Of a DNA stretch of 14,241 nucleotides, positions 1-14,241 are shown in pieces. The stretch lies in the IMG/VR virus record IMGVR_UViG_3300007162_000002, one strand, 5' to 3'. How positions within the stretch are numbered: position 1 is the stretch's first letter; every line of letters starts with the position of its first letter. The notes under the pieces were generated by a model. That model did not search any database. It worked only from the letters and a program-made list of their open reading frames with translations, and was not told where the DNA came from. The position numbers and the translations under genes are program-made. This DNA comes from a virus.

Positions 1-120
1 AATCCTAACGCTCTTGTTTTTGCTGATCCAATGTTAGTAACAAATTCTGAATTTCCTACCCCTACAAATGGCATTGCTGAAATTATAGTTTCTCCAGCAG
101 CAACAGCAAAAGCCTACATG
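1..120. repeat. Terminal direct repeat, copy 1 (identical to 14122..14241). Circular-genome or assembly overlap.
   Basis: A base-by-base reading of 1..120 matches 14122..14241. The offset is 14121, which is divisible by 3, so the long ORF frame is preserved across the junction. Confidence 0.95.
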
Positions 121-3100
121 TATTATCTACCATTAGTTCCACTAGGTGTTGGAACTGCAAGTGGTGTTTCAAGATATACAAATGTATATCATAGAGTATT
201 ATATTCATTAAATTCTCACACAGTAAACCACGTTGATCAAGAAACAGATTCTTACTGGTTAACAGTTCCAGATACTAGTGAAGGAAACATTAGTTACATT
301 CAACAAAGAACTCCCGCAGGATCAACAATTAGACAACCAATATATTTACATTGGTTTTCTTTTGCTAAATCAAATGCAAATTATGCTAGTTTTATTAATC
401 TTGGTGTTGGACCTGTTTTTGCTGGTGATCAAGCAGGCAGCCAAGTAGTAAAAGTGCCACTTAGAGTTGGAAACATATCTTATAGAGGAAATACTGATTA
501 TATTCAATATCCAAGTAGTGGATTTGCAACTAAACCATTTAATTATGAAGATACTGGACCTGGAAACACTTGGCAATTTAAATTTGATGGAGAATCATAT
601 TTAAGAATACCTGAAGCAGGTCAAAGCGATTATGGTACTTATTTACAAAATTATATGACTGGCTCATATTATGGATCTTACGAAATGACAATTAGAACTG
701 ATCAAAACAATTGTGTTTTAGGTTCTGTTAGCCAAAGCATAAAAGCAACAGTAGATGGAACAGATATTTTTTCTTCAATACATTCAAGACCTTCTTCAAA
801 AGATAGTGAATTTGTTCAAGCAGAAATAAATAGCATTAGAACTGAAAGTCCATATACTACTTATACTGATAGATATCATAATAGAACATTAGAATATGCA
901 TATTTAGATGAAGGCGATTATATAAATTATGCTTCTAGTGATCAAGGTAGAAATTATGGCGACATTAGAATTGTAGATGGAAAAATAGCATTTTATCACA
1001 AAGATAGACTTAGTGGTGTAGAAACTTTAGTTTTAGGAACTACTTTAATAAATGATTTAAACAATCATCATATTATTGTAAATAGAACTGTTGATGGATT
1101 TGGCAATATGAATCAAGCAGATAAAAATAAAAAATCAAGATTAGAATTGTGGGTAGATGGTAATTTAGAAGCAATTTCTTATGAAATTAATGACAAAATT
1201 TGGTTAAATAGATTTTCATTTTTAGGAACTGGTTGGTCATTAGAAAAAAGCGGAAATGCTGAAAATGGTGAAGTAGTTACATTTAGACCAGTGTTTGATG
1301 AAAGCCAAGTATTTACTGGCTATATGCAAGATTACATTTGCAGAAGTAATAGACCATTAACAGAAATTGAAATTCAAAGATTGGCTCGTGCTAGATTTGA
1401 AATAATTGCTAAAAAAACAGATCCAATAATTGCTTCATCATCTATGCCTAACGCTACAGTTACAACAAATGCAAAAACTATATTAAGACTATATTGGGAT
1501 ATAGATGAAACTAGACAAAATGGTTTAAGTTTTACAAATAACAATTACAACATTTATACTTACAATGTTTTAAAAACTACATACAATAAACCATCAGAGT
1601 TATTTAATTTAGATCAAAACTTTAAAAATAAATTGCAAGAATTAGAAGAGGTAAGTGCAATAACTAATGATTATGTATACCTAAGCGACCCTTCTGTATT
1701 TTTAATTGATCCAGGCAATGTTGCAAATCAATTTGCATTAGGCAGTGAATTAGTTACAACTACAAGACCAAGGAAATATCATCAAGAATTTTTAGTAGAT
1801 GGAGTTATTATAAACACTGGCGATAGATTTGCTGTAACTGGTCAAACAGATCCTAGGCAAAATGGTTTATATGTATACAATGGAAGAGGAAAACCAGCAT
1901 TAAGAACAACTGATTCAAATACTGCATCTAAATTAACTAATTGTTATTTTTATGTAAGAAATGGTAATACAAATAAAAATACTTATTGGACATGCGTTTC
2001 TGAAAATATAACAAAAAGAATAGAGGCTGGATTTGGAAACTTAAGAGGAAAAAATTCTCCTTTAATATTTAAACAAATATATGATACAGAGATAACAGAA
2101 TCTTCTCCAATATATGATGATTATTATAGAAATGGAATTGCAAAAACTCCTAGATTTATAGATGTAAATAATGATATTGAATTTGATTATGACATTATTA
2201 CATTTATTAACTATCCAACAAATAGTAATGAGTTGTTAGAATCAATTCCTGGTTATGACAAACAATATGTAAGCAATCTTTATAAAGACTTTATTAATAA
2301 TTTAATTACTGCTGCTGCAAATGGAAAAAATATATTTGTAAACAGTCCAATGCTTACACAAGATTTAGGAATAGCAACAAATGTAGTAAATGTTCCTCAA
2401 ACTTTTGACACAAACGATACAAAAAGTCAATCTGAAAACTTATTTGATTTAACAACTTCTGGATCTATTCATTTTGATAATTACAGAAATAATAAATATC
2501 AAGTTGTAAACACATTGTCTGGTTTAACAAATCAATCAACATATATTATGACAGATTTTGTTAACTATATACCAGAACAATCTTGGTTAAATGATCAATA
2601 TCACATAAAATATACAAATAAAACAAGCGGTTTATCAATAAATGATGAATATATAATTCCAACTTTGCCAGTTAGGTCTGCACAACTTAATTTAATAAAA
2701 TCTAACAATCAAATTGGATCAAAAGATATATTTGGAGTTTTAGGTTCAAACATAATAGTTGGAACACCAATAACAACTTTTGGTCAAAATTATTGGGTTA
2801 ATAATACATTAACTTCAAATCCATATAAAAATTATGTAACAACTATTGCTGTAAATTCTGGATCTGTAGTAAAAGGTATTACTATAACTGGTAAAATATT
2901 TGTTAATTTAGTAGAAGATGGATTAACTGCTGGCAGAGAAGATTATAATTATGCAATTTTACAAGACGTTCCAAATACTCAAGAAACTGCTGCTAAAAGA
3001 CTTTGGCAATATTCAACCAGTCGTTTAAGAAAAAATAAAAAATATGTTCTTGAAGAAGAAGCCTACAACATTCAAAGACTTCCAAGCAATTCTGGTGGAG

Positions 3101-3279
3101 GTCCTATAGTTCAAATGCCAACAAACATTACCGATGGAACTATTAGGAATAATTATGATATAGAAAATGGTAATGCTTATTCAACAGAATATAATAATGT
3201 TGAAAATGAATTATATACCACAATAAAAGTTCCGTGTTTAAGTATGTCTTACATGGGATTAAAATGGTTAGGGGGTTAA
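1..3279 (+). CDS. Giant multidomain virion (tail or receptor-binding?) protein, C-terminal 1092 codons. Continuation of 12319..14241 across the circular junction.
   Basis: Frame 1 is open from base 1 to TAA 3277..3279 and is the same frame as the ORF entering from 12319. The combined ORF is 5082 nt / 1693 aa. There is a LamG/ConA-like signature at about 577..1401 (FKFDGESYLRIPE ... RLELWVDGNLEA ... FTGYMQDY). There is a tail-fibre-like motif at about 1819..1998 (GDRFAVTGQTDPRQNGLYVY...RTTD...YFYVRNG...TYWT). Confidence 0.8.
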   Translation, partial: NPNALVFADPMLVTNSEFPTPTNGIAEIIVSPAATAKAYMYYLPLVPLGVGTASGVSRYTNVYHRVLYSLNSHTVNHVDQETDSYWLTVPDTSEGNISYIQQRTPAGSTIRQPIYLHWFSFAKSNANYASFINLGVGPVFAGDQAGSQVVKVPLRVGNISYRGNTDYIQYPSSGFATKPFNYEDTGPGNTWQFKFDGESYLRIPEAGQSDYGTYLQNYMTGSYYGSYEMTIRTDQNNCVLGSVSQSIKATVDGTDIFSSIHSRPSSKDSEFVQAEINSIRTESPYTTYTDRYHNRTLEYAYLDEGDYINYASSDQGRNYGDIRIVDGKIAFYHKDRLSGVETLVLGTTLINDLNNHHIIVNRTVDGFGNMNQADKNKKSRLELWVDGNLEAISYEINDKIWLNRFSFLGTGWSLEKSGNAENGEVVTFRPVFDESQVFTGYMQDYICRSNRPLTEIEIQRLARARFEIIAKKTDPIIASSSMPNATVTTNAKTILRLYWDIDETRQNGLSFTNNNYNIYTYNVLKTTYNKPSELFNLDQNFKNKLQELEEVSAITNDYVYLSDPSVFLIDPGNVANQFALGSELVTTTRPRKYHQEFLVDGVIINTGDRFAVTGQTDPRQNGLYVYNGRGKPALRTTDSNTASKLTNCYFYVRNGNTNKNTYWTCVSENITKRIEAGFGNLRGKNSPLIFKQIYDTEITESSPIYDDYYRNGIAKTPRFIDVNNDIEFDYDIITFINYPTNSNELLESIPGYDKQYVSNLYKDFINNLITAAANGKNIFVNSPMLTQDLGIATNVVNVPQTFDTNDTKSQSENLFDLTTSGSIHFDNYRNNKYQVVNTLSGLTNQSTYIMTDFVNYIPEQSWLNDQYHIKYTNKTSGLSINDEYIIPTLPVRSAQLNLIKSNNQIGSKDIFGVLGSNIIVGTPITTFGQNYWVNNTLTSNPYKNYVTTIAVNSGSVVKGITITGKIFVNLVEDGLTAGREDYNYAILQDVPNTQETAAKRLWQYSTSRLRKNKKYVLEEEAYNIQRLPSNSGGGPIVQMPTNITDGTIRNNYDIENGNAYSTEYNNVENELYTTIKVPCLSMSYMGLKWLGG

Positions 3280-3280
3280 A

Positions 3281-3688
3281 ATGTTTGCAACAACAACACA
3301 AGTATTTAATTTAACAGCAGTTAATGTTAACGAATCATTAATTTCTCGTGCTCAATCTATAATTGAAGTTTATATTGGAAGATTAGAAGCATCTGTTACA
3401 AATACTACTGATTTAGAATATTTAAAAAGAGCAGTGTCTTATCAGGCTGCCTACATGTTAAACAATGAAGATATTGTTTTTGAACAAATAGCAGCAAGTA
3501 CTATAAGTCAAAATGATTCAGTAGTAACTTTTAAGCCAGGAGATCAAAATGCACCATGGATAGCACCTTTGGCTATTATGGCTTGTAAAAGATTATCTTT
3601 CTTAAAAACTCGTTATATAAGAACAGGAAAAATAGATCCAGTAACACTTTTGTCTGATGATATAGATTCTGATTGGACAACAATCTAA
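3281..3688 (+). CDS. Head-tail connector/adaptor (gp6-like, Phage_connect_1-like).
   Basis: 135 aa. A GGGGG ribosome binding site sits just upstream (3271..3275). The pattern ...SRAQSIIEVYIGR...LKRAVSYQAAYMLNN... resembles gp6/gp15-type connector proteins. Confidence 0.55.
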   Translation: MFATTTQVFNLTAVNVNESLISRAQSIIEVYIGRLEASVTNTTDLEYLKRAVSYQAAYMLNNEDIVFEQIAASTISQNDSVVTFKPGDQNAPWIAPLAIMACKRLSFLKTRYIRTGKIDPVTLLSDDIDSDWTTI

Positions 3689-4014: not shown

Positions 4015-4019
4015 GATAA

Positions 4020-4535: not shown

Positions 4536-4538
4536 ACC

Positions 4539-4566
4539 TTGACAGTTGTCCACCGTATGGTATAAT
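4539..4566 (+). promoter_or_regulatory. Near-consensus sigma-70/sigma-A promoter for the rep gene.
   Basis: TTGACA at 4539..4544, a 16-nt spacer, then TGgTATAAT (TG 4558..4559, TATAAT 4561..4566). It lies immediately after the stop of the upstream gene and 28 nt before the rep ATG. The spacer contains an iteron copy. Confidence 0.8.
4544..4552 (+). repeat. Iteron copy (AGTTGTCCA) inside the rep promoter spacer.
   Basis: Exact match to the 9-mer repeated at 4889, 4910, 4931, 4952 and 5132. Confidence 0.8.
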
Positions 4567-4593
4567 AGTAGTACACAAGTAGAGAGGTGTAAT

Positions 4594-5265
4594 ATGAATC
4601 ATCATTCATTTAGAATGTTAATTAAAGACATTCCTAGCAATATATTAAAAAATAATAATATAAATCCAGCACATTTTAAAGCAGTTTGCTTTATTTTGTC
4701 TATGTATGGCAGTTACGAAACAGGCACAAGCGTATTTCCATCTTGGCTTACTGTGGCTAAAGAGGCTGGTGTTGATAGAAAAACTGGTATGAAAGTAAGA
4801 GATTTTTTGCTTAAATACAATATTTTAACTCCTATAGGTAAAAGATTAAAGAATGTATCAGAATATAAATTCTCTGATCCATCAGATGAGTTGTCCATTA
4901 TGATGAATAAGTTGTCCACTTTAGACATGCAGTTGTCCACTTTACCAAATCAGTTGTCCAGTATTGATGGACACAATAGTATTATAGATACTACTATAGA
5001 TAGTATTAATTATATTATTAAAGAAGATTTAAAAGAAGAAAAAAATCAAGGGGTAGATTATTCTTTGATTAATAATTTAAATACCCTTGATTATGAATTA
5101 ATAGATTGGGATGATGAATCCGAAGATGACCAGTTGTCCAATTTAGACTACCCAGATGAGGAATTAGATAAAGTCTTTCAAGAAGACTACCAAAATTCGG
5201 GGGTAGAAAAGAATAAAGAATTAGAAGATATGATGAATAGTTACTTTACCTTTGGAAAGATATAA
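4594..5265 (+). CDS. Replication initiator / origin-binding protein: winged-HTH N-terminus and acidic C-terminus.
   Basis: ATG 4594 is preceded by GAGAGGTG (4582..4589). HTH-like segment SWLTVAKEAGVDRKTGMKVRDFLLKYNIL. The iteron array lies inside the linker coding region, and the C-terminal half is acidic. The TTG at 4546 in the track falls inside the promoter and is unlikely. Confidence 0.6.
   Translation: MNHHSFRMLIKDIPSNILKNNNINPAHFKAVCFILSMYGSYETGTSVFPSWLTVAKEAGVDRKTGMKVRDFLLKYNILTPIGKRLKNVSEYKFSDPSDELSIMMNKLSTLDMQLSTLPNQLSSIDGHNSIIDTTIDSINYIIKEDLKEEKNQGVDYSLINNLNTLDYELIDWDDESEDDQLSNLDYPDEELDKVFQEDYQNSGVEKNKELEDMMNSYFTFGKI
4889..4960 (+). repeat. Iteron array: 4 direct copies of AGTTGTCCA with exact 21-bp spacing (putative ori).
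   Basis: Copies start at 4889, 4910, 4931 and 4952. They are read in frame as xLS(I/T/S). A markedly AT-rich tract follows (about 4961..5045). Confidence 0.85.
5132..5140 (+). repeat. Sixth iteron copy (AGTTGTCCA).
   Basis: Exact 9-mer in the same orientation, preceded by C as in three other copies. Confidence 0.75.
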
Positions 5266-5435
5266 TGACTAAATTATTTATTGATGAAACTAGAAATTAT
5301 TATGTATTTGTTTGTCCAAAAGATGGAGAAATTGATATAGTATATACTGAAGAATTAGACAAACCTATTGGATCATATTTTCATCCAACATGTAAAACTG
5401 AATGTGACCTACTAGAACTAGATTGGGTATTATAA
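5265..5435 (+). CDS. Small hypothetical protein (56 aa) with a Cys/His cluster.
   Basis: Not in the ORF track, presumably because it is too short. ATG 5265 overlaps the rep stop (TAATG). The frame is open to TAA 5433..5435. The protein MTKLFIDETRNYYVFVCPKDGE...HPTCKTEC carries C-x22-H-x2-C-x3-C. Confidence 0.5.
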   Translation: MTKLFIDETRNYYVFVCPKDGEIDIVYTEELDKPIGSYFHPTCKTECDLLELDWVL

Positions 5436-5638
5436 TGGGAACTCCTAGAATCAAAATAAAAGAAACAAAAACAACATATCAATATACAATTTTATATTGT
5501 AACAATGAAAATCGTGCTGAAATAATTTCATACAAAACAGAAGCCTTTGATAAAAATCCCCAAGTTAAGTGCTCTTCTTGTGAATGCAATCATTTTATGC
5601 AAGTTATAGGTTGGGAAGAAGAAACGTGGAAAGCGTAG
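5435..5638 (+). CDS. Small hypothetical protein (67 aa), Cys-rich.
   Basis: ATG 5435 overlaps the upstream TAA (TAATG). The TTG at 5423 in the track is less likely. Contains CSSCECNH. Confidence 0.55.
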   Translation: MGTPRIKIKETKTTYQYTILYCNNENRAEIISYKTEAFDKNPQVKCSSCECNHFMQVIGWEEETWKA

Positions 5639-5817
5639 TAAGTCCTTTAAACCCTATTGAAATCATACTTAAATATCCAGATATTTGTCAGATCTGTAAT
5701 CAAAAAATGAAGATGCTTGATTTAGGAATATGGAGAGGTAAACAATACGGTATGCTTCACACCGATTGTTACAACAAAAGTGTTAACACAACATTAGAAG
5801 AATTGCTTGATTGGTAA
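5626..5817 (+). CDS. Small putative zinc-binding protein (63 aa from GTG 5626, or 77 aa from ATG 5584).
   Basis: Contains C-x2-C-x20-H-x2-C (ICQIC...HTDC). The start is ambiguous, and the frame overlaps the end of the preceding ORF. Confidence 0.5.
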   Translation: MESVVSPLNPIEIILKYPDICQICNQKMKMLDLGIWRGKQYGMLHTDCYNKSVNTTLEELLDW

Positions 5818-5831
5818 CTATGTGCTATAAT
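5803..5831 (+). promoter_or_regulatory. Putative extended -10 promoter.
   Basis: TTGCTT at 5803..5808, a 17-nt spacer, then TGcTATAAT (TATAAT 5826..5831). Confidence 0.5.
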
Positions 5832-5837
5832 AAACCT

Positions 5838-5855
5838 ATAAGTCTTCTGACTTAT
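5838..5855 (+). other. AT-rich hairpin (7-bp stem, TTCT loop).
   Basis: ATAAGTC at 5838..5844 pairs with GACTTAT at 5849..5855. It lies between the two putative promoters. Confidence 0.4.
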
Positions 5856-5876
5856 TAATTATATTAGTAGCCATAT

Positions 5877-5885
5877 TGATATAAT
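5877..5885 (+). promoter_or_regulatory. Putative extended -10 promoter element (TGaTATAAT) with no good -35.
   Basis: TG at 5877..5878 and TATAAT at 5880..5885. The predicted transcription start is about 5891..5893, at the foot of the GC-rich hairpin. Confidence 0.5.
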
Positions 5886-5893
5886 CACCTCTC

Positions 5894-5947
5894 GAGGGAG
5901 GGGCGGGATCTGTGGGGTCACAGTCATACTACGCCTCTCCTTCTTTT
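5894..5947 (+). terminator. GC-rich compound hairpin plus T-tract: an intrinsic terminator or attenuator, or the body of a small RNA.
   Basis: GAGGGAGGGGCG at 5894..5905 pairs with CGCCTCTCCTTC at 5932..5943 (12 bp including G-U pairs). There is an inner CTGTG/CACAG hairpin at 5910..5923. TTTT follows at 5944..5947. This is the only strongly GC-rich island in an AT-rich genome. Confidence 0.6.
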
Positions 5948-5997
5948 AAAGAGGTAGATTGCAATGTTGCAGTAACTAGTATAAATGGGAGGATTAA

Positions 5998-6102
5998 ATG
6001 AGTTCTGGCTTTACAGAAGAATTAACTTTAGAACAACTTCAAGCATTAAATTTAAATCCACCAATCGTTGGTGCACAAATTTCGGGGTATACAGAAGAAT
6101 AA
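5998..6102 (+). CDS. Small hypothetical protein (34 aa).
   Basis: ATG 5998 is preceded by GGGAGGA (5987..5993). Sequence MSSGFTEELTLEQLQALNLNPPIVGAQISGYTEE. The stop TAA 6100..6102 overlaps the next ATG. The ATG at 5985 in the ORF track sits on top of this ribosome binding site and is in another frame. Confidence 0.5.
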   Translation: MSSGFTEELTLEQLQALNLNPPIVGAQISGYTEE

Positions 6103-6266
6103 TGATATTATTTCCTACTGCTAATGATGTATCCTATGATATAGAAAAGAAACATATATCCTTTTCAATGATATTCTTTGATGAAACAAATAAAACTAAT
6201 ATAGTTATAACATTTAAGGCTGATACCGCTCTTCAAGAAGTAATAGAAGATTTGTTGGTTAAATAA
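6102..6266 (+). CDS. Small hypothetical protein (54 aa).
   Basis: In-frame ATG 6102 of track ORF 5985..6266, coupled to the upstream stop (TAATG). MILFPTANDVSYDIEKKH... Confidence 0.5.
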   Translation: MILFPTANDVSYDIEKKHISFSMIFFDETNKTNIVITFKADTALQEVIEDLLVK

Positions 6267-6454
6267 TGGTAAATAAATGGTATTGGAAGAATAAAATGAG
6301 TAAATATGTAGGGACCGCCGCAAGTGTGTGTCTTAATCCTAAAAACCCTGGTTCATGCTTAAATTTGAGGGTATATAAATGTAAAGATATATGTAATTTT
6401 GTTAATAATAGTAAATATGATTATTATATGAATAAATCAAGGATAAGTTTATAA
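6266..6454 (+). CDS. Small hypothetical protein (62 aa) with four Cys.
   Basis: ATG 6266 overlaps the upstream TAA (TAATG). An alternative start at ATG 6296 follows GGAAGA. Confidence 0.45.
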   Translation: MVNKWYWKNKMSKYVGTAASVCLNPKNPGSCLNLRVYKCKDICNFVNNSKYDYYMNKSRISL

Positions 6455-6462
6455 GGAGATAT

Positions 6463-6954
6463 ATGGGATATAGTAAATATAATGAAGATCAAATAGAAGA
6501 ATTTATTTCTACCGCCGATGAAATGGGCCTTGGGCCAGCAATCCGCTATTTAGGCTATCCAGGCTCTTATCATACAGCCAAGAAGTTTTATACACAAAGA
6601 GGATTAGATCTTCCTACCCCCGATAGTTTGGCGGTACTGGCAAGAAATTTAGGTATATTTTATACTGATAAAGAAAAGATAGTAGCAGCACAAGCAGTAT
6701 TAGATAGATGCTTTGAAAAACTAATGGAAGATAGTCTTAATAGTGAAGAATTAAATAAATTATCAAATGCTGTTCATAAAGCAATACAAACTATTAATCT
6801 AATAGAAGGAAAATCTACTAATATTAATGAAAATAGATCTAAAGATGGTACAGATCTAGCATTAGTTGATATGATTAATGAAGCAAAGATTAAAAATAAT
6901 GAAATGAAAGAAAGAATTATAAATAAATCTATTGACAAGGTAAATAATATATGA
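6463..6954 (+). CDS. Putative terminase small subunit.
   Basis: 163 aa, with an AAGGAG ribosome binding site at 6453..6458. It sits upstream of the large terminase. The N-terminus is HTH-like (EEFISTADEMGLGPAIRYLGYPGSYHTAKKFY) and the C-terminus is coiled-coil-like. The call rests on position and size only. Confidence 0.5.
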   Translation: MGYSKYNEDQIEEFISTADEMGLGPAIRYLGYPGSYHTAKKFYTQRGLDLPTPDSLAVLARNLGIFYTDKEKIVAAQAVLDRCFEKLMEDSLNSEELNKLSNAVHKAIQTINLIEGKSTNINENRSKDGTDLALVDMINEAKIKNNEMKERIINKSIDKVNNI

Positions 6955-7051
6955 TAGGGCAGGGGTACCCAAACGTATTATTAATTTTAAAAACAAAATT
7001 TTCGCTTCCCCAGACAAATATTTTTAATAAAAATGAAATCCTAGGGGTTTT

Positions 7052-7261
7052 ATGACTCCAGACATGATAACTGCTATAGGGGCAATAGTTCTTGGCATTT
7101 TAGGTGGTTTTTGGGCCTTTATGAGGTATCTGGTGACCAAGTTCTTATCAGAGTTAAAACCTAATGGTGGTTCTAGTTTAGTTGATAAAGTAGATAGATT
7201 AGAAAAAAGAATTGATGATATATATATTATATTAATTGAAAAGAAAACTAGGAGAAAATGA
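7052..7261 (+). CDS. Single-pass membrane protein (69 aa), holin-like topology.
   Basis: N-terminal TM segment ITAIGAIVLGILGGFWAFMRYLV. The tail is charged and ends KKTRRK. The stop overlaps the terL start (ATGA at 7258..7261). Confidence 0.65.
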   Translation: MTPDMITAIGAIVLGILGGFWAFMRYLVTKFLSELKPNGGSSLVDKVDRLEKRIDDIYIILIEKKTRRK

Positions 7262-8757
7262 GAGCAGAAGATATAATATCAAAGGTTCCAGTTGAACTAT
7301 TAACTGTCAAAGAAGGCAGAATAGAATTAACTAAGTATGATCCTTTATTATTTGCTTTAGTTTATTTGCCTCATCATTTAAAAAATTCTAAGAATGAGAT
7401 TACCCTTTCCGAGTTCCATGTTGATTTAGCGGAGTTTGGGAAATCTTGGATAGTCCCGCCGACTTATCCGAAGCAACATAGGGATGCGTTTATTGCCCCT
7501 AGGGAATCTGGAAAGAGTACATGGGTCTTTCTAATTCTTCCTTTGTGGGCTGCTGCTCATAATCACGTAAAGTTTATTGCAGCCTTTTCAGATGCTGCTT
7601 CCCAAGCCGAAACTCATCTGCTAACATTTAAGAATGAATTGGACACTAATGAATATTTACAAAGCGATTATCCAGAGATGTGTAAGCCTAAGATGGTATC
7701 TACAACAGGTAGGGCGTTGGCTAACAACTCATGGAGAATTGTCCAATCAAATGATTTTATTTTTGATGCTAATGGTATTGATACTAACTCATTAGGTAAA
7801 AAGGTATTTGGTCAAAGACCAGATCTTATTATTTTAGATGATATTGAAAAAGGCGAAAAGAACTATTCTGAGTATCAGGCTGGACAACAGTTAAATACAG
7901 TCTTTGATGATATTGCTCCTATGAACATATATTCTAGGATGATTTTTGTTGGAACTACAACTATGCCTAATTCTATTATGGATCAATTTAGAAAAAAGGC
8001 TGAAGGTTTTAAAGAAGCAGAATTAGGATGGATAACTGATCAAAATGTAAAAGTTCATTATTATCCAGCAATTATGCAAAATGAAGACGGTTCTGAAAGG
8101 TCTGTTTGGGAAGAAAAGTGGACTTTAGAATGGCTACAAAGCCAAAGACATTTAAGAGACTTTGCTAAAAACTATATGAATAAACCAGTTAACTTAGATG
8201 GTAACTTTTGGGCTAATGAAGATATAATTATAGAAGAAGCAGAAGAGTATGGAAATACTATTATTTCAGTAGATCCAGCAGTAACTAAAAACAAAGTTTC
8301 TGATTATACAGGTATAGCCGTATTGTCAAGAGGCATAGATGCTTTAGGTAATGAAAACATTTACATAAGAGATGCTCAACAAGTTAAATTGTCACCATCT
8401 GATTTATGTGAAAAAATAAAAGACTTGGCAAAAACATATGATGCAGGATTATTATATGTTGAAACTAACCAAGGTGGAGATCTTTGGCAGGATGTGTTTA
8501 AAACTATTCCTATTAAATATAGATCAAAACATCAAAAGTTGTCTAAACAGATTAGGGCTGGAAAAGCCTTAAACTTTTATCAACAAAAGAAAATACGACA
8601 TAATGCTCATTTTCCTGCATTAGAAGAGCAAATGTGGTCTTTTCCAAAAGTGTCACATGATGACGTACTTGACGCTGTAGTCACAGGAGTATTGTATTTC
8701 CTAGACAATAAAGCAGTAAAAGTAATAGCAAGACAATTTAACTATTTAAGGAGTTAA
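7258..8757 (+). CDS. terL: Terminase large subunit.
   Basis: 499 aa. Walker A APRESGKST and Walker B DLIILDDIE. C-terminal RNaseH-like nuclease acidic motifs are present (IISVDPAV, LYVETNQGG, SHDDVLDAV). The portal gene follows immediately. Confidence 0.9.
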   Translation: MRAEDIISKVPVELLTVKEGRIELTKYDPLLFALVYLPHHLKNSKNEITLSEFHVDLAEFGKSWIVPPTYPKQHRDAFIAPRESGKSTWVFLILPLWAAAHNHVKFIAAFSDAASQAETHLLTFKNELDTNEYLQSDYPEMCKPKMVSTTGRALANNSWRIVQSNDFIFDANGIDTNSLGKKVFGQRPDLIILDDIEKGEKNYSEYQAGQQLNTVFDDIAPMNIYSRMIFVGTTTMPNSIMDQFRKKAEGFKEAELGWITDQNVKVHYYPAIMQNEDGSERSVWEEKWTLEWLQSQRHLRDFAKNYMNKPVNLDGNFWANEDIIIEEAEEYGNTIISVDPAVTKNKVSDYTGIAVLSRGIDALGNENIYIRDAQQVKLSPSDLCEKIKDLAKTYDAGLLYVETNQGGDLWQDVFKTIPIKYRSKHQKLSKQIRAGKALNFYQQKKIRHNAHFPALEEQMWSFPKVSHDDVLDAVVTGVLYFLDNKAVKVIARQFNYLRS

Positions 8758-8758
8758 T

Positions 8759-10132
8759 ATGACAGATATAAAAAATGCGTTAGAAAGACTTATAGATCGT
8801 AGAAACGAATATAATCTTGCTCACGTTTACTATGATGGAAATCAAAAAGAATTGTTTCCAAACCAAAAATGGGCAACTATTTTTAGAACAACCGCTAATC
8901 ATTTTAGATTTAATTTTACTAGAACAGTGGTTGATTCAGTTTTAAATAGGTTAGAAATTGCTTCAGTTTTAGCAACAACCGAAGAAGCAGATCAAATTAT
9001 TAATAGAGTTTGGGAATCAAATGATTTAGTGTTAGACGCTAATGAAATTCACAAAAGAGCATTAGTTTATGGAGATGCTTATGCAATTGTATGGACAGAT
9101 GAAAATGGAGAAATTCAAATAAATTACAATTCTCCATTAACAACCGTAGTCGTATACGATACAGAAAATCCAAGAATAAAAAGATTTGGTGCAAAGATGT
9201 GGCAACATTCAGATCCATATGATGCTTTTAATAATAAAGTAATTAGATTAAATATGTATTATCCAGATCGTATTGAAAAATATGAAGCATATGGAGAAGT
9301 AGATACAATAGTTTCATCAACAGCATTTACTTTATTAGAAATTGTTGAAAATCCATGGAACGAAGTTCCAGTATTTCATTTTAGAACATCAAAACAATAT
9401 GGAAGACCAGAACATTACGATGCTTATGGACCACAAGATGCTATCAACAAGTTAATCATTACACATATGAATACAGTTGATTATCAAGGTGCACCTCAAA
9501 GGTACGCACTTGCTGGTGGGGGAACAAATGAATCAGAAATTGTTGATTTTGACGAAACAGAAGAAGCGGTTAATGTTGGAACATTAAAAAATGGACCAGG
9601 AGAACTTTGGTACCTTAAAGGTATAACAAGAGTTGGAGAATTTGCTCCAGCAGATCACAAAGTGTTTACTGAGCCAGTTACAGAATACATTAAGGCAATG
9701 GCTTCATTAACATCAACACCTATTCACTATTTTGATAAAACAGCAGGACAATCTAGTGGTGAATCTTTAAGAACAGCAGAAGCACCTTTAATTAAAAAAA
9801 TACAAGATAGACAAATATCTTTTGGTAGTACATGGAGAGATTTGTTTAGATTTATATTAAAAATTGAAAATCTAGAATCTGAAATTATGACAGGTAATTT
9901 AGATGTTCAAATTAAATGGGTTCAACCAGAAAGTTTAGATACTTTAGACTCATGGGAAGTAGCAGTTAAAAAACGTGTTGTTGGAGTATCTTTGCAACAA
10001 GTTTTATTAGAGATGGGCTATGATTTAGAAGTAGCAAATAGAATTGTTGAAGAAGCAGATGCTGGATTAATGTCTCAAGGCATGAATGCTAGTAATATTG
10101 CTGCTCAACAAGCAGGGCAAAGAATAGAATAA
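8759..10132 (+). CDS. Portal protein (SPP1 gp6-like family by appearance).
   Basis: 457 aa, 1 nt after terL, with an AAGGAG ribosome binding site. N-terminal AHVYYDGNQ motif. Size and position are typical of a portal. Confidence 0.85.
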   Translation: MTDIKNALERLIDRRNEYNLAHVYYDGNQKELFPNQKWATIFRTTANHFRFNFTRTVVDSVLNRLEIASVLATTEEADQIINRVWESNDLVLDANEIHKRALVYGDAYAIVWTDENGEIQINYNSPLTTVVVYDTENPRIKRFGAKMWQHSDPYDAFNNKVIRLNMYYPDRIEKYEAYGEVDTIVSSTAFTLLEIVENPWNEVPVFHFRTSKQYGRPEHYDAYGPQDAINKLIITHMNTVDYQGAPQRYALAGGGTNESEIVDFDETEEAVNVGTLKNGPGELWYLKGITRVGEFAPADHKVFTEPVTEYIKAMASLTSTPIHYFDKTAGQSSGESLRTAEAPLIKKIQDRQISFGSTWRDLFRFILKIENLESEIMTGNLDVQIKWVQPESLDTLDSWEVAVKKRVVGVSLQQVLLEMGYDLEVANRIVEEADAGLMSQGMNASNIAAQQAGQRIE

Positions 10133-10141
10133 GAGGAAAAT

Positions 10142-10597
10142 ATGGAAGAAGAAGTAAATATAGAAAATATGGTTTCTACGGAGATTAAAGATCCTAAAAA
10201 GGTTCTTGATGCTTTAGATAGAGCCAAATCTGATGCTAAAAAGTTCAGAGAAGAAAAAGAAGAACTAAAAAAACAATATGAAAAAGCAGTTGTTGAATTA
10301 AATGATTGGTCTGCAGAATTATTAAAAGAAAGGGTATCTAGAAAATTAGAAAAAGATGGATTACCTAATGCAGATAGATTATTTAAATATCTTGATTTTG
10401 GAAAAATTGGTTTTGATCCTGATAAAGATATAGTTGGATTAGATGAACAAATGGAAGTCCTTAAAGGTGATTTTCCAGAACTTTTTGATCCAAAAATAAG
10501 AGTTGGGGGTAGGGTAAATGCTGCGGCAGACAATCCTGCAAACACTTCTTTATCTGCAACTGAAAAACAAGCAAAATACATATTAGGCAAAATTTAA
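10142..10597 (+). CDS. Scaffolding protein.
   Basis: 151 aa, highly charged and Lys/Glu-rich with a helical character. It lies between the portal and the major capsid gene. The capsid protein lacks a delta domain. Confidence 0.6.
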   Translation: MEEEVNIENMVSTEIKDPKKVLDALDRAKSDAKKFREEKEELKKQYEKAVVELNDWSAELLKERVSRKLEKDGLPNADRLFKYLDFGKIGFDPDKDIVGLDEQMEVLKGDFPELFDPKIRVGGRVNAAADNPANTSLSATEKQAKYILGKI

Positions 10598-10612
10598 TAT
10601 GTGTGGTATAAT
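10584..10612 (+). promoter_or_regulatory. Putative extended -10 promoter for the capsid mini-operon.
   Basis: TAGGCA at 10584..10589 (4/6), a 17-nt spacer, then TGgTATAAT (TATAAT 10607..10612). A roughly 100-nt leader follows before the AAAGGAG ribosome binding site and ATG 10721. Confidence 0.55.
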
Positions 10613-10626
10613 GAATATATCAAAAC

Positions 10627-10656
10627 GCAATACTCTAAATGGACGTTTAGGATTGC
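10627..10656 (+). promoter_or_regulatory. 5'-proximal leader hairpin of the capsid mRNA.
   Basis: GCAAT at 10627..10631 pairs with ATTGC at 10652..10656. Further CT:GG and TAAA:TTTA pairs surround the loop TGGACG. It starts about 8 nt from the predicted transcription start. Confidence 0.35.
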
Positions 10657-10720
10657 TATATTTTGAATTAGACGATTCATTATTCACAAACTAAACTAAA
10701 ATTATAAAAGGAGTAATATC

Positions 10721-11626
10721 ATGGCATTAACACGTACAGACTTTACCGAAGCCAATGGTTACATCTTAGAGGAACAAGGTAGCCAAGCAGTTCAAGCAAC
10801 CTTAGTTAACTCTGCAGTTGAATCATTTGCACGTAGAGAAGCAATGGCTTCACGTACTAAATCAGTACCTCGTTTTGTTTCAGATGCAGCAGATGTAGTC
10901 GCAGAAGGCGATGAAATTCCATCAGCAGTAGCAACACTAGACGAAGTAGTATTAACAGCAAAGAAATATGCACAAATTATGTACATCTCTGAGGAAGACG
11001 TAAACGATTCAATCGTAGACGTACTTGCAACATACAAAAGAGAATGGGCATCACGTTGGGCACGTAAATTTGACAACGCAACACTTGCAGTTACAGTGGC
11101 AACAGATGGTACAGACACTGCACCATTTACATCACTATACAGAGCAATTACAACCTCTCCATCAGCAAGTGCAAATCTAATCACAACAGGTGGTGCACTA
11201 TCTTTTGCAGACATTAACAATGCTTTATCAGCAGTTGAATCAAGCGAAAAATTTGATGCAGCAAACACAGTATTTATGGCACATCCAAAAATGCTAGGTC
11301 ACCTTCGTGGAATGATTGACAGCAACAACGATTTGGTTCTTCCAAATCCAATTGCAGCAACACCAGGACAATTATTTGGTTATCCATTAGTTGTTTCTTA
11401 CGGTGCAGCAAAATCTTCAGCAGCAACAGATGCTCCAACAGGAAACGAATTATTAATCGTTGGTAACCGCCAAATGTTAATTAATGGCGTTCGTGGTGGC
11501 GTAGAATCAGTTGTTTCTCGTGATGCAGAATTCGCAAAGGATGGCGTTCTTCTTAAGACTCGCATTCGCAGAGGCTTTGCAGTAGCAGATGCTGGTGCGT
11601 TCGCAATCGTAGAGAAAACGGCATAA
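10721..11626 (+). CDS. Major capsid protein, HK97 fold (Phage_capsid-like).
   Basis: 301 aa. Motifs typical of HK97-family capsid proteins: VAEGDEIP...LTAKKYAQIMYISEEDVNDS...KFDNATL...HPKMLGHLRG. Strong AAAGGAG ribosome binding site. Codon usage is distinct from the rest of the genome. Confidence 0.9.
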   Translation: MALTRTDFTEANGYILEEQGSQAVQATLVNSAVESFARREAMASRTKSVPRFVSDAADVVAEGDEIPSAVATLDEVVLTAKKYAQIMYISEEDVNDSIVDVLATYKREWASRWARKFDNATLAVTVATDGTDTAPFTSLYRAITTSPSASANLITTGGALSFADINNALSAVESSEKFDAANTVFMAHPKMLGHLRGMIDSNNDLVLPNPIAATPGQLFGYPLVVSYGAAKSSAATDAPTGNELLIVGNRQMLINGVRGGVESVVSRDAEFAKDGVLLKTRIRRGFAVADAGAFAIVEKTA

Positions 11627-11642
11627 GGGGGGGGAATAACAC

Positions 11643-12077
11643 ATGGCTTCAAAGTTATATGGTTCCTTCTTACTAAAAGCATTAAATAAGGAAATTGATT
11701 GGGACACTGATACCATTAAGGTAGCACTTCTAACAAGTTCTTATACACCAAACCAAGATACTCACGACTATTTCGATGATGTAGTCGCAAATGAAGTATC
11801 TGGCACAGGATATACTGCAGGTGGAAATACCTTGGCTTCAAAAACTATCACTTATGATGGTGCAACAAACAAGGTTGTTCTTGACGCAGCAGATACTACT
11901 TGGTCAGCAAGTACTATCACAGCACGTTACGCAGTAGTTTATGATGCTTCACCAGCATCCGATGCAACAAGACCAGTAATTGGTTATGTTGACTTTGGTT
12001 CTGATCAATCATCATCTTCAGGTAATTTTACAATCACATGGGATGCAACAGGTATTGTTGTTATTACAGTAGCGTAA
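11643..12077 (+). CDS. Hypothetical virion protein co-expressed with the capsid protein (decoration or auxiliary head protein?).
   Basis: 144 aa, with a GGGGGGG ribosome binding site at 11627..11633. It shares the GC-richer composition of the capsid gene. The sequence pattern IKVALLTSSYTPNQDTHDYFDDV..EVSGTGYTAGGN...ARYAVVYD looks like a conserved phage family that I cannot name. Confidence 0.7.
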   Translation: MASKLYGSFLLKALNKEIDWDTDTIKVALLTSSYTPNQDTHDYFDDVVANEVSGTGYTAGGNTLASKTITYDGATNKVVLDAADTTWSASTITARYAVVYDASPASDATRPVIGYVDFGSDQSSSSGNFTITWDATGIVVITVA

Positions 12078-12096
12078 ATTATATGAATATAAGAGT

Positions 12097-12253
12097 GCAG
12101 GCTAAATCAATTGAATTAATAGCAAAAACTATTAATCCTTTTGTAGTAATTAAATTAAATTATCTTCCTATGGATATAATTAATTACGCAACCATTAGCC
12201 TGCCTCTACTTAACAAAGTTCTTTCAATTGCAGGACATAGCATTTCAGCAATT
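12097..12253. repeat. Cluster of nested inverted repeats (structured RNA or DNA element).
   Basis: GCAGGCTAA at 12097..12105 pairs with TTAGCCTGC at 12195..12203. These enclose ATTAATAG 12115..12122 / CTATTAAT 12129..12136 and GTAATTAA 12146..12153 / TTAATTAC 12180..12187. A further pair is AATTGC 12226..12231 / GCAATT 12248..12253. Confidence 0.6.
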
Positions 12254-12281
12254 AACCCAAAATTTTTAAGAGGTGAAACAG

Positions 12282-12315
12282 TAGCCGTATACGCATAAGC
12301 GTTGCGGCTATTTTT
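12282..12315 (+). terminator. Rho-independent terminator after the capsid mini-operon.
   Basis: A 12-bp stem with one bulge (12282..12294 pairs with 12299..12310) and loop ATAA, followed by TTTTT at 12311..12315. Confidence 0.7.
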
Positions 12316-12318
12316 ATT

Positions 12319-14241
12319 ATGTTAATGAAAAATTGGACTGTAACTGAATATAATCCAGACTATTTTTGGGATTTTGAAGACGCAACAATAGAAAATATGA
12401 CAAGCGATGGGTCTGTTTCTGATCCAACGTTTACAAAAACAAATACTCCAGCAAGATTTGATATATCAGAACAATATTATGGCATGTGGCCATCTGACAA
12501 TGCTTTCTTTAACAATTCAACTGGATTTGTACAAAGTACTAATAGTACACTTGGTGACTATTTAGATAATGGCAATTACGCAATTAACTTTTTTATAGAA
12601 TTTTCAAAACATGGTGTTAGTGGAACAAAAAATCTTTTAGCAATAAACTTTGCAAGCAATTCTTTAGTTTTACAATTATTAGGAACTAGTGCTGGTGCTG
12701 ATGCTTATAAATTAAGAGTTACAAGTGGTGGAAATACTCTTTTAACATCTACTCAACAGCATTGGTCATATGCTGCAAGTGGTGCGGTAGTTAGTGGTGG
12801 ATTTTTAAGCACTCCTACTGGATGGACTGGATTGCGTCCAGCATTTATGATGGTTACATTAAGACAATCTGGTGGCAATATAGAATTATATATAAATGGT
12901 TCTTTAGATGTTTCAACTTCATTTACAGCACCAAGCGGAGCCTTTACTAATTTTAGAATAGGCTCAGATTCCGTAAGTGTTAACTTTCTTATGGATCAAT
13001 TAAGTGTTGCTTCTTCATCTACATATACTGCAACTAATTTAGCAACTTTGTGGGATTTATTTTTATTAGGAGAAATTCCAGTAGATGCAATGACAACAAG
13101 TTCTGCAATTTTTGCTGATCCAACTGTTGTTATTACTAGCCCAGATGTTACTTATGTAGCAGATAGTATGGATGCTAGTTCAGATTTTATAAACCCATTT
13201 CCAGAAATTGCAGAAATTAATCCAGCCGATGTTCTTTTAGCAGATTGTTTATTTAACGATCCTTTAATTTCTATAGAAGAAGATAATTCTGAAAACGAAA
13301 TGACTGCAAGTGCTGAATTTATAGATCCAACAATCATAACAAATTTAATTTTAATAGTTGCAGCAGATCCTGCTCTTGCAAATGCAGAAATGATTGATCC
13401 ACAAGTTGTGGCATCTCAAGATAATAATTTTGTTGCAGATGAATTTTTAGCCTCTGCTGACTCTGGAAATCATTTATATTCTTGGTATCATGTTAGACGT
13501 TTTAATAGAAGAGACAAAATTCCAAGCGGAACAGATGCAATTTATGACATAGTAAATGTTTTTAGTAGTCAAAATTTATGGTTTTATCAAGCACAAATTG
13601 ATGATGATTCAAGAATAACAAGCACTACTCCTTTATATTTTAAACCAGAATTAAGTGGCATTGCAAGTGGATCTGTTGTTAAGGCTTTAATTAAACTTCC
13701 AATTAAAAATTTTAGTGCAACTTCTGGAACTAGCATTCTTGACATGTACAGAACAACTGGTGCTTGGTCATTAAATACAATAATTAATTCAAATCAACCA
13801 GCAGCAAGTTTAGTAACTAATGATTATTCATTTAGTTGGACTTCTGGTGATTTTCATTACATAGATGTTACTGAACTTTACAATAATTTATCATCTAACT
13901 CTAATACAGGTTTTTATATATCGCTTTCAAGTGGCAATCCAGTATACTTTGATTTAGAAAGTTTTGGTCATCAATTTCAATTAGATTTATATCTTAACAC
14001 TCCACCAGTTAATGCAATAATTGCAGCAGACCCTGCTTTGGCAAATGCAGAAGTTACTTTTGGAAATAAACAAGTTTTTGTAGACCCTGCTTTGGCAAAT
14101 GCAGAAATGATGCCAACAACAAATCCTAACGCTCTTGTTTTTGCTGATCCAATGTTAGTAACAAATTCTGAATTTCCTACCCCTACAAATGGCATTGCTG
14201 AAATTATAGTTTCTCCAGCAGCAACAGCAAAAGCCTACATG
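12319..14241 (+). CDS. Giant multidomain virion protein, N-terminal part. It runs off the window end and continues at 121..3279 of the circle.
   Basis: Frame 1 opens after TGA 12274..12276. The first ATG is at 12319 (a second is at 12325), and there is no stop before the window end. There is a LamG/ConA-like signature at about 12364..13070 (NFFIEF...NLLAINF...AFMMVTLRQSGGNIELYINGSL...FRIGSD...MDQLSV). Short xDPxx repeats follow. There is a DNRLRE/CBM96-like beta-sandwich signature at about 13463..14010 (...MYRTTGAWSLNTIINSNQPA...FHYIDVTELYNNL...NTGFYISL). Confidence 0.8.
   Translation, partial: MLMKNWTVTEYNPDYFWDFEDATIENMTSDGSVSDPTFTKTNTPARFDISEQYYGMWPSDNAFFNNSTGFVQSTNSTLGDYLDNGNYAINFFIEFSKHGVSGTKNLLAINFASNSLVLQLLGTSAGADAYKLRVTSGGNTLLTSTQQHWSYAASGAVVSGGFLSTPTGWTGLRPAFMMVTLRQSGGNIELYINGSLDVSTSFTAPSGAFTNFRIGSDSVSVNFLMDQLSVASSSTYTATNLATLWDLFLLGEIPVDAMTTSSAIFADPTVVITSPDVTYVADSMDASSDFINPFPEIAEINPADVLLADCLFNDPLISIEEDNSENEMTASAEFIDPTIITNLILIVAADPALANAEMIDPQVVASQDNNFVADEFLASADSGNHLYSWYHVRRFNRRDKIPSGTDAIYDIVNVFSSQNLWFYQAQIDDDSRITSTTPLYFKPELSGIASGSVVKALIKLPIKNFSATSGTSILDMYRTTGAWSLNTIINSNQPAASLVTNDYSFSWTSGDFHYIDVTELYNNLSSNSNTGFYISLSSGNPVYFDLESFGHQFQLDLYLNTPPVNAIIAADPALANAEVTFGNKQVFVDPALANAEMMPTTNPNALVFADPMLVTNSEFPTPTNGIAEIIVSPAATAKAYM
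13358..13392 (+). repeat. Intragenic repeat encoding (V)AADPALANAEM, copy 1.
   Basis: TTGCAGCAGATCCTGCTCTTGCAAATGCAGAAATG. It differs from copy 2 only at synonymous positions within the shared peptide (GAT/GAC and CTT/TTG). Confidence 0.85.
14021..14055 (+). repeat. Intragenic repeat encoding (I)AADPALANAEV, copy 2.
   Basis: TTGCAGCAGACCCTGCTTTGGCAAATGCAGAAGTT. It lies 663 nt (221 codons, in frame) downstream of copy 1. Confidence 0.85.
14082..14106 (+). repeat. Intragenic repeat encoding VDPALANAE, copy 3.
   Basis: The 25-nt AGACCCTGCTTTGGCAAATGCAGAA is identical to 14028..14052 and lies 54 nt downstream of it. Confidence 0.9.
14122..14241. repeat. Terminal direct repeat, copy 2 (identical to 1..120).
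   Basis: Same as copy 1. It lies inside the open frame that starts at 12319. Confidence 0.95.

Follow-up and report, generated by a model that had tools for sequence, protein, structure and literature searches.

The window analysed here is the whole 14,241-nucleotide stretch of the IMG/VR virus record IMGVR_UViG_3300007162_000002. An open reading frame (ORF) encoding 1693 residues runs across the ends of the window, and the protein, referred to below as the giant, is by homology and synteny the counterpart of gp8 of the Streptomyces satellite MiniFlayer. The best explanation of the gene content is that the window represents the whole genome, 14.1 kb long and assembled as a circle, of a capsid-forming, MiniFlayer-like mini-virus of the satellite type. 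The giant is probably the adsorption fibre of this mini-virus, constructed as a beads-on-a-string protein of two modules. We infer its exposure on the virion, its role as a fibre, the division of anchoring and target binding between its modules, and the nature of its target.

MiniFlayer (OQ357865) has been characterised experimentally and depends on a helper (deCarvalho et al. 2023, PMC10690885). Its virions have 42-nm capsids with short podovirus-like fibres, and transmission electron microscopy has shown that they hold on with these fibres to the neck of their helper, the siphovirus MindFlayer; the genome contains no primase, no integrase and no lysogeny module (PMC10690885). It has been proposed that the genes adjoining the small ‘tail fiber’ gene of MiniFlayer ‘could constitute an adsorption module’, which covers gp8 implicitly only (PMC10690885).

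The giant ORF is intact

Positions 1-120 of the window recur exactly as positions 14122-14241, which are the last 120 nucleotides of the 5′ part of the giant ORF. This direct repeat of 120 bp leaves a unit genome of 14,121 bp with a GC content of 32%. As the original prediction, a note made from the sequence of the window, had stated, the frame that starts at ATG 12319 continues for 641 codons without a stop to the window end; going upstream, the first stop in this frame is met at 12274. The unit length of 14,121 bp is a multiple of three, so that the frame runs on into 121..3279. Joining 12319..14121 with 1..3279 and translating yields 5082 nucleotides, or 1693 residues and a stop, which is 36% of the genome and agrees with the predicted size. 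The list of ORFs that accompanied the original prediction indeed gives only the segment 31..3279, because ORFs running off the ends of the window go unlisted.

An independent contig of 14,151 bp, L006 from the Logan assembly of run SRR5691554, corresponds to the 14,121-bp unit and a 30-nucleotide k-mer overlap. It is linearised at another point and encodes the identical 1693-residue ORF unbroken at positions 1706-6787; therefore, the junction within the giant ORF is genuine. The terminal overlaps of related contigs measure 30, 55, 127 and 141 nucleotides, which are k-mer sizes of assemblers. The 120-bp repeat thus marks an assembly that was closed into a circle, and it need not exist physically at the genome ends. 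Homologues from other samples, with identities of 34-90%, are encoded by single ORFs of 1682-2069 residues, and those at 34-43% identity by one ORF of 1682-1739 residues. The ORF crosses the point at which the contig was joined, and its length is exceptional in a genome of 14 kb, as might result from a chimera created by wrong circularisation or from a collapsed frameshift; however, so improbable an artefact of assembly or annotation is refuted by the identical ORF and the same unit length in an assembly with another breakpoint, by the single ORFs of the homologues, and by a conservation profile that spans the whole length of the protein. The gene of the giant is real, and neither a frameshift nor a stop divides it into genes of ordinary size.

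Kinship with MiniFlayer

Gp8 of MiniFlayer (WDS61315.1) is 1376 residues long and is annotated as ‘hypothetical protein’. Residues 1310-1609 of the giant align with residues 872-1192 of gp8 at 27% identity (blastp, E 2e-26), and a weak second alignment pairs the LamG2 region of the giant with residues 675-815 of gp8. The two genes occupy the same place in a cassette that encodes, in this order, the major capsid protein, a 144-residue protein, a protein of about 70 residues, the giant, and an adaptor-like protein of about 130 residues. The same hairpin lies ahead of both start codons. The order of parts within the two proteins is also the same: an N-terminal LamG domain (Laminin_G_3, E 1.6e-18), repeat arrays of the PMxGSG/PMTASA type, an internal LamG domain, and a homologous C-terminal domain of about 400 residues that ends in ...WLG. 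A CBM96-like stretch in gp8 was spotted by eye only. However, the identity is only 27% and is confined to the C-terminal third. The giant is 317 residues longer than gp8 and contains an extra region of about 240 residues (642-880) and a fibre-type domain of about 70 residues, whereas gp8 has a C-terminal repeat tail past ...WLG, which the giant lacks. MiniFlayer differs further in an extra 111-residue ‘tail fiber’ gene, gp9, between the gene of the giant and that of the adaptor, and in its GC content of 47%, compared with 32% in the window.

All genes of the window are on the + strand. A genome of less than 20 kb thus carries its own packaging and head genes (Table 1), which are homologous to those of MiniFlayer, and gene-by-gene BLAST places them in the same order in both genomes. 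In a set of 50,697 deposited phage records, TerL finds its best matches in the Streptomyces satellites Mulchroom and MiniFlayer. Searches of the window ORFs against Pfam and PHROGs detected no polymerase, primase, helicase, initiator, integrase, endolysin or holin; about ten small ORFs are without assignment. The window contains neither tRNAs nor Rfam matches, and a scan of 185,579 reference genomes of bacteria and archaea turned up no integrated copy. Because of the homology to MiniFlayer and the lack of detectable replication, lysis and integration genes, dependence of the element on a helper is likely.

GC content was ruled out as a guide to the host, since MiniFlayer has 47% GC on a Streptomyces host; the GC content of the genus Streptomyces is much above that value. 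Shine-Dalgarno motifs precede about half of the window genes. This speaks against hosts that make no use of such sites, for example members of the Bacteroidota, and goes no further.

Domain organization of the giant

The original prediction had picked out five elements of the giant by eye: an N-terminal LamG/ConA-like fold, short DP-type repeats, a DNRLRE/CBM96-like sandwich, a second LamG-like region, and a tail-fibre-like motif GDR..V.GQTD...NGLY. All of them are recovered by profile, structure or repeat searches (Table 1).

The AlphaFold2 model of the N-terminal domain, LamG1, has predicted local distance difference test (pLDDT) scores of 60-88 and is confident over residues ~70-250. Foldseek comparison of the model with the PDB retrieves lectin-like subdomains of clostridial neurotoxins, the lectin domain of a trans-sialidase, and a galectin, with E values from 5e-7 to 2e-5, and comparison with BFVD retrieves LamG proteins of uncultured Caudovirales with E values down to 1e-12. 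The sequence of LamG1 itself is below Pfam detection; the equivalent N-terminal domains of homologues and of gp8 match Laminin_G_3 at 1e-17 to 1e-18. By fold and by the profiles of its homologues, LamG1 is predicted to belong to the ConA-like lectin/LamG clan of Pfam, CL0004. The CBM96 domain, which is also present in the homologue P0002 and in other family members, is a predicted carbohydrate-binding module. The second LamG region, LamG2, is indicated by weak Pfam matches at aligned positions of homologues.

Residues 1200-1269 match phrog_2647 at 2.6e-12 and phrog_11518, annotated ‘tail fiber’, at 9.5e-5, and tblastn finds them in proteins of Erythrobacter, Gordonia and Thermus phages. This domain is common to phage tail-fibre and decoration proteins. 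The C-terminal domain has no sequence relatives in Pfam or the PDB, even when a profile of 22 sequences is used. Sequence searches of the PDB with the whole protein, with a profile of its C-terminal two thirds and with the 22-sequence profile gave nothing credible, and when weak Pfam matches were pooled over the 22 C-terminal domains, no family emerged consistently. The motif DYDxIxF...GKxLxV raised the suspicion of a GATase1- or flavodoxin-like alpha/beta subdomain; nothing supported it, and it is not claimed.

The repeat arrays are positioned between the globular domains. Their family-wide consensus is (E/D)-P-M-T-A-S-A-x-M-P-x-P, and the core of array 1 in the giant is (D/E)-P/x-M/L-T-A-S-A-x-M/F-x-D-P, with units at residues 282, 304, 326, 350 and 374 in a position-specific scoring matrix (PSSM) scan. 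The scan finds seven units in the giant, compared with 0.07 in shuffled sequences, and a median of ten per protein in the family. The spacing of the units peaks sharply at 22-26 residues, and unit positions in gp8 and in the homologue P0041 are nearly superimposable. Array 1 is modelled with pLDDT below 30; the low scores of the arrays would fit either disorder or an intertwined oligomeric shaft.

Pfam, PHROGs and PDB-sequence profiles detect no nozzle, tube or knob domain in the giant, and Pfam, PHROGs and PDB sequences no beta-helix depolymerase, glycosidase or peptidoglycan hydrolase. Hidden hydrolase or depolymerase domains, which the original prediction had thought worth looking for, were not found in the giant or clearly in 26 diverse members of its family.

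An exchangeable N-terminal module is fused to a conserved core

The closest relative of the window, the 15.2-kb genome L003, is 92-99% identical to it in every protein other than the giant. The giants of the two genomes are about 90% identical from residue ~586 onward; their identity is 71% in LamG1 and 36% in repeat array 2, where the protein of L003 contains an inserted LamG-type module of about 370 residues. In the more distant L004, LamG1 is 65% identical to that of the window, better than the rest of the protein (32-49%). A different LamG domain takes the place of LamG1 in proteins P0004-P0006 and in L008. The N-terminal third of the giant is the most variable part of the whole genome. 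The exchanges of LamG1 and the uneven identities indicate that the N-terminal module is a mosaic, and the comparison of homologues thus reveals the domain shuffling that the original prediction had suggested looking for.

The giant is also split naturally. In a 15.2-kb relative (JGI 3300050339 contig, 15,160 bp), it is encoded by two adjacent overlapping genes for proteins of 1150 residues, with LamG, and 1039 residues. Proteins of the 1000-1050-residue class begin at the equivalent of residue ~650-670 of the giant, directly after repeat array 2. From the exchanges and the natural split, we read the giant as an exchangeable recognition module (residues 1 to ~650, the N-module) fused to a conserved core (residues ~650 to 1693, the C-module).

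A family of giants encoded by mini-genomes

An exhaustive HMMER search of 1.84 billion representative proteins with the profile of the C-terminal domain identified 259 clusters, 214 of them at E <=1e-10. Nearly all contain proteins of 1000-2200 residues that have the domain at or near the C-terminus, and their amino-acid compositions range from those of AT-rich to those of GC-rich coding sequences. About a dozen clusters consist of proteins of 1000-1060 residues, which suggests that the split two-gene form is common. Among deposited phages, the domain is found in MiniFlayer only; scans of IMG/VR with three distant family members yielded only unrelated LamG-bearing phages.

The sampled genomic contexts of the giant gene (the window, L003, L004/L005, L007/L008, L023, L024, L027, L028, L029/L030, L031 and the P0010 contig) are contigs of 10-17 kb with the same cassette in 11 of 11 cases, and none is longer than 20 kb. 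Several of them are closed circles, in which the giant gene makes up 25-41% of the genome. The cassette order described above is kept in all sampled relatives in which the genes are on the contig. A single giant chain, which the original prediction regarded as an unusual solution for a tailed phage, is instead a conserved hallmark of MiniFlayer-like mini-genomes of the satellite type.

Domains of the LamG type are present in 22 of the 26 diverse family members, in which other ConA-like families and CBM96 recur. No lysin, peptidase or clear depolymerase was found in the 26 proteins, and no enzyme domain recurs. Polysacc_lyase and 3keto-disac_hyd have weak matches in three members each, which we take to be ConA-like cross-hits, given the clans of these Pfam families. 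The closed genomes L024 (16.7 kb) and L029 (17.1 kb) encode both a gp8-type giant and a tyrosine integrase, at positions 11670-12749 and 13086-14330, respectively. L024 also carries Lsr2.

The ATG of the giant is not preceded by a Shine-Dalgarno motif. Instead, it directly follows a terminator-like hairpin and a U-rich tract (Table 1), and this arrangement of a GC-rich hairpin, U-tract and AUG is found upstream of each giant at 11 of 11 related loci, including that of MiniFlayer (L001 5833-5866, L003, L004, L007, L008, L023, L024, L027, L028, L029 and L031). The outer stem UAGCCG/CGGCUA is kept among closer relatives; inner or whole stems differ in others. The hairpin is probably an attenuating terminator that keeps expression of the giant and the downstream genes low relative to that of the head proteins. 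In L028, the position of the hairpin implies that the true start of the giant is 27 nucleotides upstream of the called one.

Possible function of the giant and alternative explanations

If the giant is an adsorption fibre, the element would assemble a small capsid of its own, and the C-module, along with the adaptor, gp6-like and gp7-like proteins, would attach a small number of giants to the portal vertex. The C-module would carry the function that is invariant within the lineage, most probably this anchoring, docking on a conserved partner, or both. The repeat arrays would form a shaft or spacer, and LamG1 and CBM96 of the N-module would bind a glycan-type target. By analogy to MiniFlayer, this target could be the helper virion; it could also be a host surface polysaccharide, which the carbohydrate-binding domains fit equally well. 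The N-terminal third of the giant is hypervariable, as is expected of a target-binding protein.

Several observations weigh against this interpretation. Phage fibres are mostly anchored by a conserved N-terminus and bind receptors with a variable C-terminal end; the polarity of the giant, with its variable N-terminal and conserved C-terminal end, is the reverse and is unusual. The AlphaFold2 model of residues 642-1693, calculated from an alignment of six sequences, has a mean pLDDT of 27.8 and was not used, and two thirds of the protein are without a fold assignment. Failure to detect replication and lysis genes among small ORFs without an assigned function is weak evidence of their absence. 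Furthermore, the integrase genes of L024 and L029 indicate that a giant does not require the virulent, helper-riding lifestyle that has been proposed for MiniFlayer.

The original prediction supposed that in this tailed phage nozzle, fibre and receptor-binding functions, and perhaps cell-wall penetration, are fused in one chain. The element would then be an autonomous minimal podovirus, which replicates and lyses cells alone and whose entire tail is formed by the giant. The giant does contain lectin and fibre-type domains, and no other gene for a tail tube, nozzle or fibre is recognisable in the window. All assemblies are free circular units without integrated copies, and several small ORFs, two of them with transmembrane-like segments, might hide replication or lysis functions. 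Nevertheless, an autonomous podovirus is unlikely, because the only characterised relative is a satellite that has been shown experimentally to depend on its helper (PMC10690885), none of the replication and lysis genes sought in the window with Pfam and PHROGs was detected, and in some relatives the giant is two genes. The part of the prediction that concerns fibre and receptor-binding functions agrees with the domains found, whereas the nozzle and penetration functions find no support, since sequence profiles detected no nozzle, tube or lytic domain in the giant or in 26 relatives. That the giant forms a whole tail in one chain, in place of a tail module, is not supported either: the genome encodes a separate adaptor homologue and a minor-tail-type protein.

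Very large proteins inside the virion are common in podoviruses. Therefore, the giant could be an internal ‘pilot’ protein that, like gp16 of T7 or the virion RNA polymerase of N4, is ejected into the cell as a DNA conduit or an early factor. Its C-terminal domain of about 400 residues, which has no known relative, could be enzymatic, and the hairpin implies a low copy number. However, multiple LamG/ConA-like domains and CBM96 are extracellular binding modules, and hypervariability of the N-module, with swaps between closely related genomes, is what proteins that recognise surfaces typically show. A 14-kb genome and a 301-residue major capsid protein imply a small capsid, which would offer little room for several 190-kDa copies. 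Particles of MiniFlayer display external fibres, for which every other gene is too small. A role inside the virion is therefore improbable.

The conserved 12-residue motif is found precisely where domains meet, the N- and C-modules have genes of their own in related lineages, and the repeat regions are modelled as disordered. It could be argued from these properties that the giant is a polyprotein, in which the repeats are processing or docking sites and which is cut into, or acts as, several lectin subunits. This is improbable, because no protease was found in the genome with Pfam and PHROGs, and arrays of three to five units with a strict period of 22-26 residues resemble a shaft or spacer rather than single cleavage sites. 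The low pLDDT of the monomer is also expected of an intertwined oligomeric shaft. An adsorption fibre with repeat arrays as its shaft or spacer is the reading that we prefer.

Neighbouring genes and other features of the window

The gp6-like protein encoded two genes upstream of the giant (Table 1) is unusually conserved: it shares 72% of its residues with MiniFlayer gp6, compared with 33-47% for the other shared proteins. It is not confined to satellites: homologues with 50-67% identity are present in 435 phage records, which include phages of Mycobacterium, Gordonia, Caulobacter, Pseudomonas and Pelagibacter. Their genes are usually located at the distal end of tail clusters or, in podoviruses, just after the head genes, and some are annotated ‘minor tail protein’. 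This placement is circumstantial support for a virion or adsorption context of the gp6-like protein. In Sixama, the homologue adjoins an LtfC-like gene.

Large ORFs downstream of the 144-residue homologue in true phages were considered as relatives of the giant and rejected, since no similarity was found; they comprised Sixama gp105, GMA1 Orf28, REQ3 Orf59, Ccr10 gp076 (2797 residues) and a 1385-residue protein of Pseudoalteromonas phage Y7. The pairing of the small gene with a very large ORF recurs in phiCbK-like Caulobacter phages, in which the 144-residue homologue is followed by a 2797-residue hypothetical protein (L038 593-8986, Ccr10 gp076). Units of the PMTASA type number three in GMA1 Orf28 (L026 6447-7706), two in REQ3 Orf59 (L032 5439-6530) and one in HTVC023P gp58 (L036 5427-5882), where 0.0-0.3 would be expected; the other four of the seven immediate downstream genes have none. 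The presence of such units near the 144-residue homologue may hint at a functional link and is a lead, not evidence. Insertion of the giant between adaptor and stopper genes of the Mulchroom type was also considered and rejected; the small proteins of the window have no similarity to gp6 or gp7 of Mulchroom.

A stretch of about 360 bp at positions 5638-5998 is without a convincing gene. It includes a GC-rich island (5885-5950, 60% GC in a genome of 32% GC) with a long hairpin (-38 kcal/mol, z -4.5), which is followed by a U-rich run. The stretch is conserved in the close relative L003 only, and it could be a terminator, a small RNA, an origin or a pac-type site. The sole perfect match to the sigma-70 consensus in the window (TTGACA, 16 nucleotides, TG-TATAAT; 12/12) lies at 4539-4566, about 30 nucleotides upstream of ATG 4594, which starts a 223-residue coiled-coil-like ORF. 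The ORFs at 4020-4535 (171 residues) and 7052-7261 (69 residues) each contain one strongly hydrophobic segment of about 19 residues, and are the only candidates for membrane or holin-like proteins in the window.

Table 1 Features of the giant and of the genome that encodes it, in coordinates of the window
Feature	Position	Strand	Basis and remarks
Giant ORF, 5′ part (residues 1-641)	12319..14241	+	Open frame; identical protein P0001 on independent contig L006
Giant ORF, 3′ part (residues 602-1693; stop at 3277-3279)	1..3279	+	Continues in frame from 14121
LamG1, predicted N-terminal ConA-like/LamG jelly roll (residues ~60-250)	12496..13068	+	AlphaFold2; Foldseek against PDB and BFVD
Repeat array 1, about six units of ~22-24 residues (residues ~255-385)	13081..13473	+	PSSM scan
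CBM96 (residues 427-544)	13597..13950	+	Pfam PF24517, E 2.4e-7, 31.2 bits against a cut-off of 26 bits
Repeat array 2, closing the exchangeable N-module (residues ~561-641)	13999..14241	+	Unit at residue 589; weaker DPALANAE units read off the sequence
Start of the C-module (residues ~650-880)	145..837	+	P0011 and P0010-type proteins of 1000-1050 residues align from here
LamG2, putative, best-conserved block (residues ~881-1075)	838..1422	+	Weak Laminin_G_1/2 matches in P0003 and P0004 at aligned positions
Fibre-type domain of ~70 residues, absent from gp8 (residues 1200-1269)	1795..2004	+	PHROGs, tblastn
C-terminal signature domain, ends ...GLKWLGG (residues 1291-1693)	2068..3276	+	Homology to gp8; HMMER family
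Terminator-like hairpin (12281-12311) and U-rich tract ending at the ATG of the giant	12281..12318	+	dG -21 kcal/mol, z -4.4
Adaptor homologue, 135 residues, immediately downstream of the giant	3281..3688	+	47% identity to MiniFlayer gp10 ‘head-to-tail adaptor’, E 3e-42; phrog_22288
Packaging and head module	6463..11626	+	PHROGs and Pfam; 33-45% identity to MiniFlayer counterparts
TerS	6463-6954	+	33% identity to MiniFlayer counterpart
TerL	7258-8757	+	PHROGs/Pfam; 44% identity to MiniFlayer
SPP1-type portal	8759-10132	+	PHROGs/Pfam; 42% identity to MiniFlayer
Scaffold	10142-10597	+	PHROGs/Pfam; 39% identity to MiniFlayer
HK97-type major capsid protein, 301 residues	10721-11626	+	PHROGs/Pfam; 45% identity to MiniFlayer
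gp6-like protein, 144 residues, always two genes upstream of the giant	11643..12077	+	72% identity to MiniFlayer gp6; phrog_644
gp7-like ORF, 71 residues, always between the gp6-like gene and the giant	12083..12298	+	Gene calls in L003, L006 and all relatives; 66-72 residues

Relation to known satellites and implications

Streptomyces satellites of the MiniFlayer, Mulchroom and Ando type have genomes of 14-17 kb that encode their own TerS, TerL, portal, scaffold and HK97-type major capsid protein, homologous to those of the window, and that contain no recognisable replication genes. However, Mulchroom and Ando have an integrase, lack a gene for the giant and borrow the siphovirus tail of the helper. 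The window resembles MiniFlayer rather than these two in that it has the giant gene and no detected integrase.

The virion of a phi29-like satellite of about 12 kb bears a long protein of many domains, in which putatively carbohydrate-binding ones are repeated, and it infects only after docking on the virion of a helper (PMC11476376). Its mode of action is broadly similar; however, it belongs to an unrelated lineage with protein-primed replication and its own DNA polymerase, its long protein has Ig-like instead of LamG domains, and it docks on the contractile tail of the helper, not on the neck. No sequence similarity was found. The lectin fold of the giant is also employed at the virion surface by phage adsorption proteins, such as the minor tail proteins of actinophages and the baseplate proteins of cyanophages, in which LamG, ConA or carbohydrate-binding domains serve adsorption, and the BFVD matches retrieved with Foldseek include LamG-containing minor tail and baseplate proteins as well as ConA-like proteins of 900-1100 residues from uncultured Caudovirales. 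By contrast, the actinophage and cyanophage proteins are parts of complete tails, without the C-terminal signature domain or the PMTASA arrays and not encoded by mini-genomes.

The giant is of the MiniFlayer gp8 type, a kind of protein that is known but barely characterised, from a single isolate. New here are the wide extent of the family, the architecture of two modules, the C-terminal domain without known relatives, the repeat arrays and the conserved hairpin, and the finding that a giant occurs together with an integrase in L024 and L029. Among satellites of this type only MiniFlayer has been characterised, and gp8 is the product of its largest gene; genes of this kind appear to be the conserved signature of a large clade that is widespread in the environment. 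The giant is a concrete candidate for a device that grapples the helper or the host, and the profile of its C-terminal domain provides a way to find such elements in metagenomes. The relatives that combine a giant with an integrase complicate the published idea that attachment to the helper compensates for the loss of lysogeny.

It is possible, although we consider it doubtful, that the approximately 260 clusters mark a global, unrecognised clade of MiniFlayer-like mini-viruses with genomes of 10-17 kb and low to high GC content. The giant would then be the whole adsorption organelle of these viruses, which would grapple the helper virion or a shared host glycan; its domain of about 400 residues would be a new fold for anchoring or docking, and the PMTASA arrays, together with the reversed polarity, would represent a new type of shaft. 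If this were true, hitch-hiking of one virion on another would be a common lifestyle and not a curiosity of Streptomyces.

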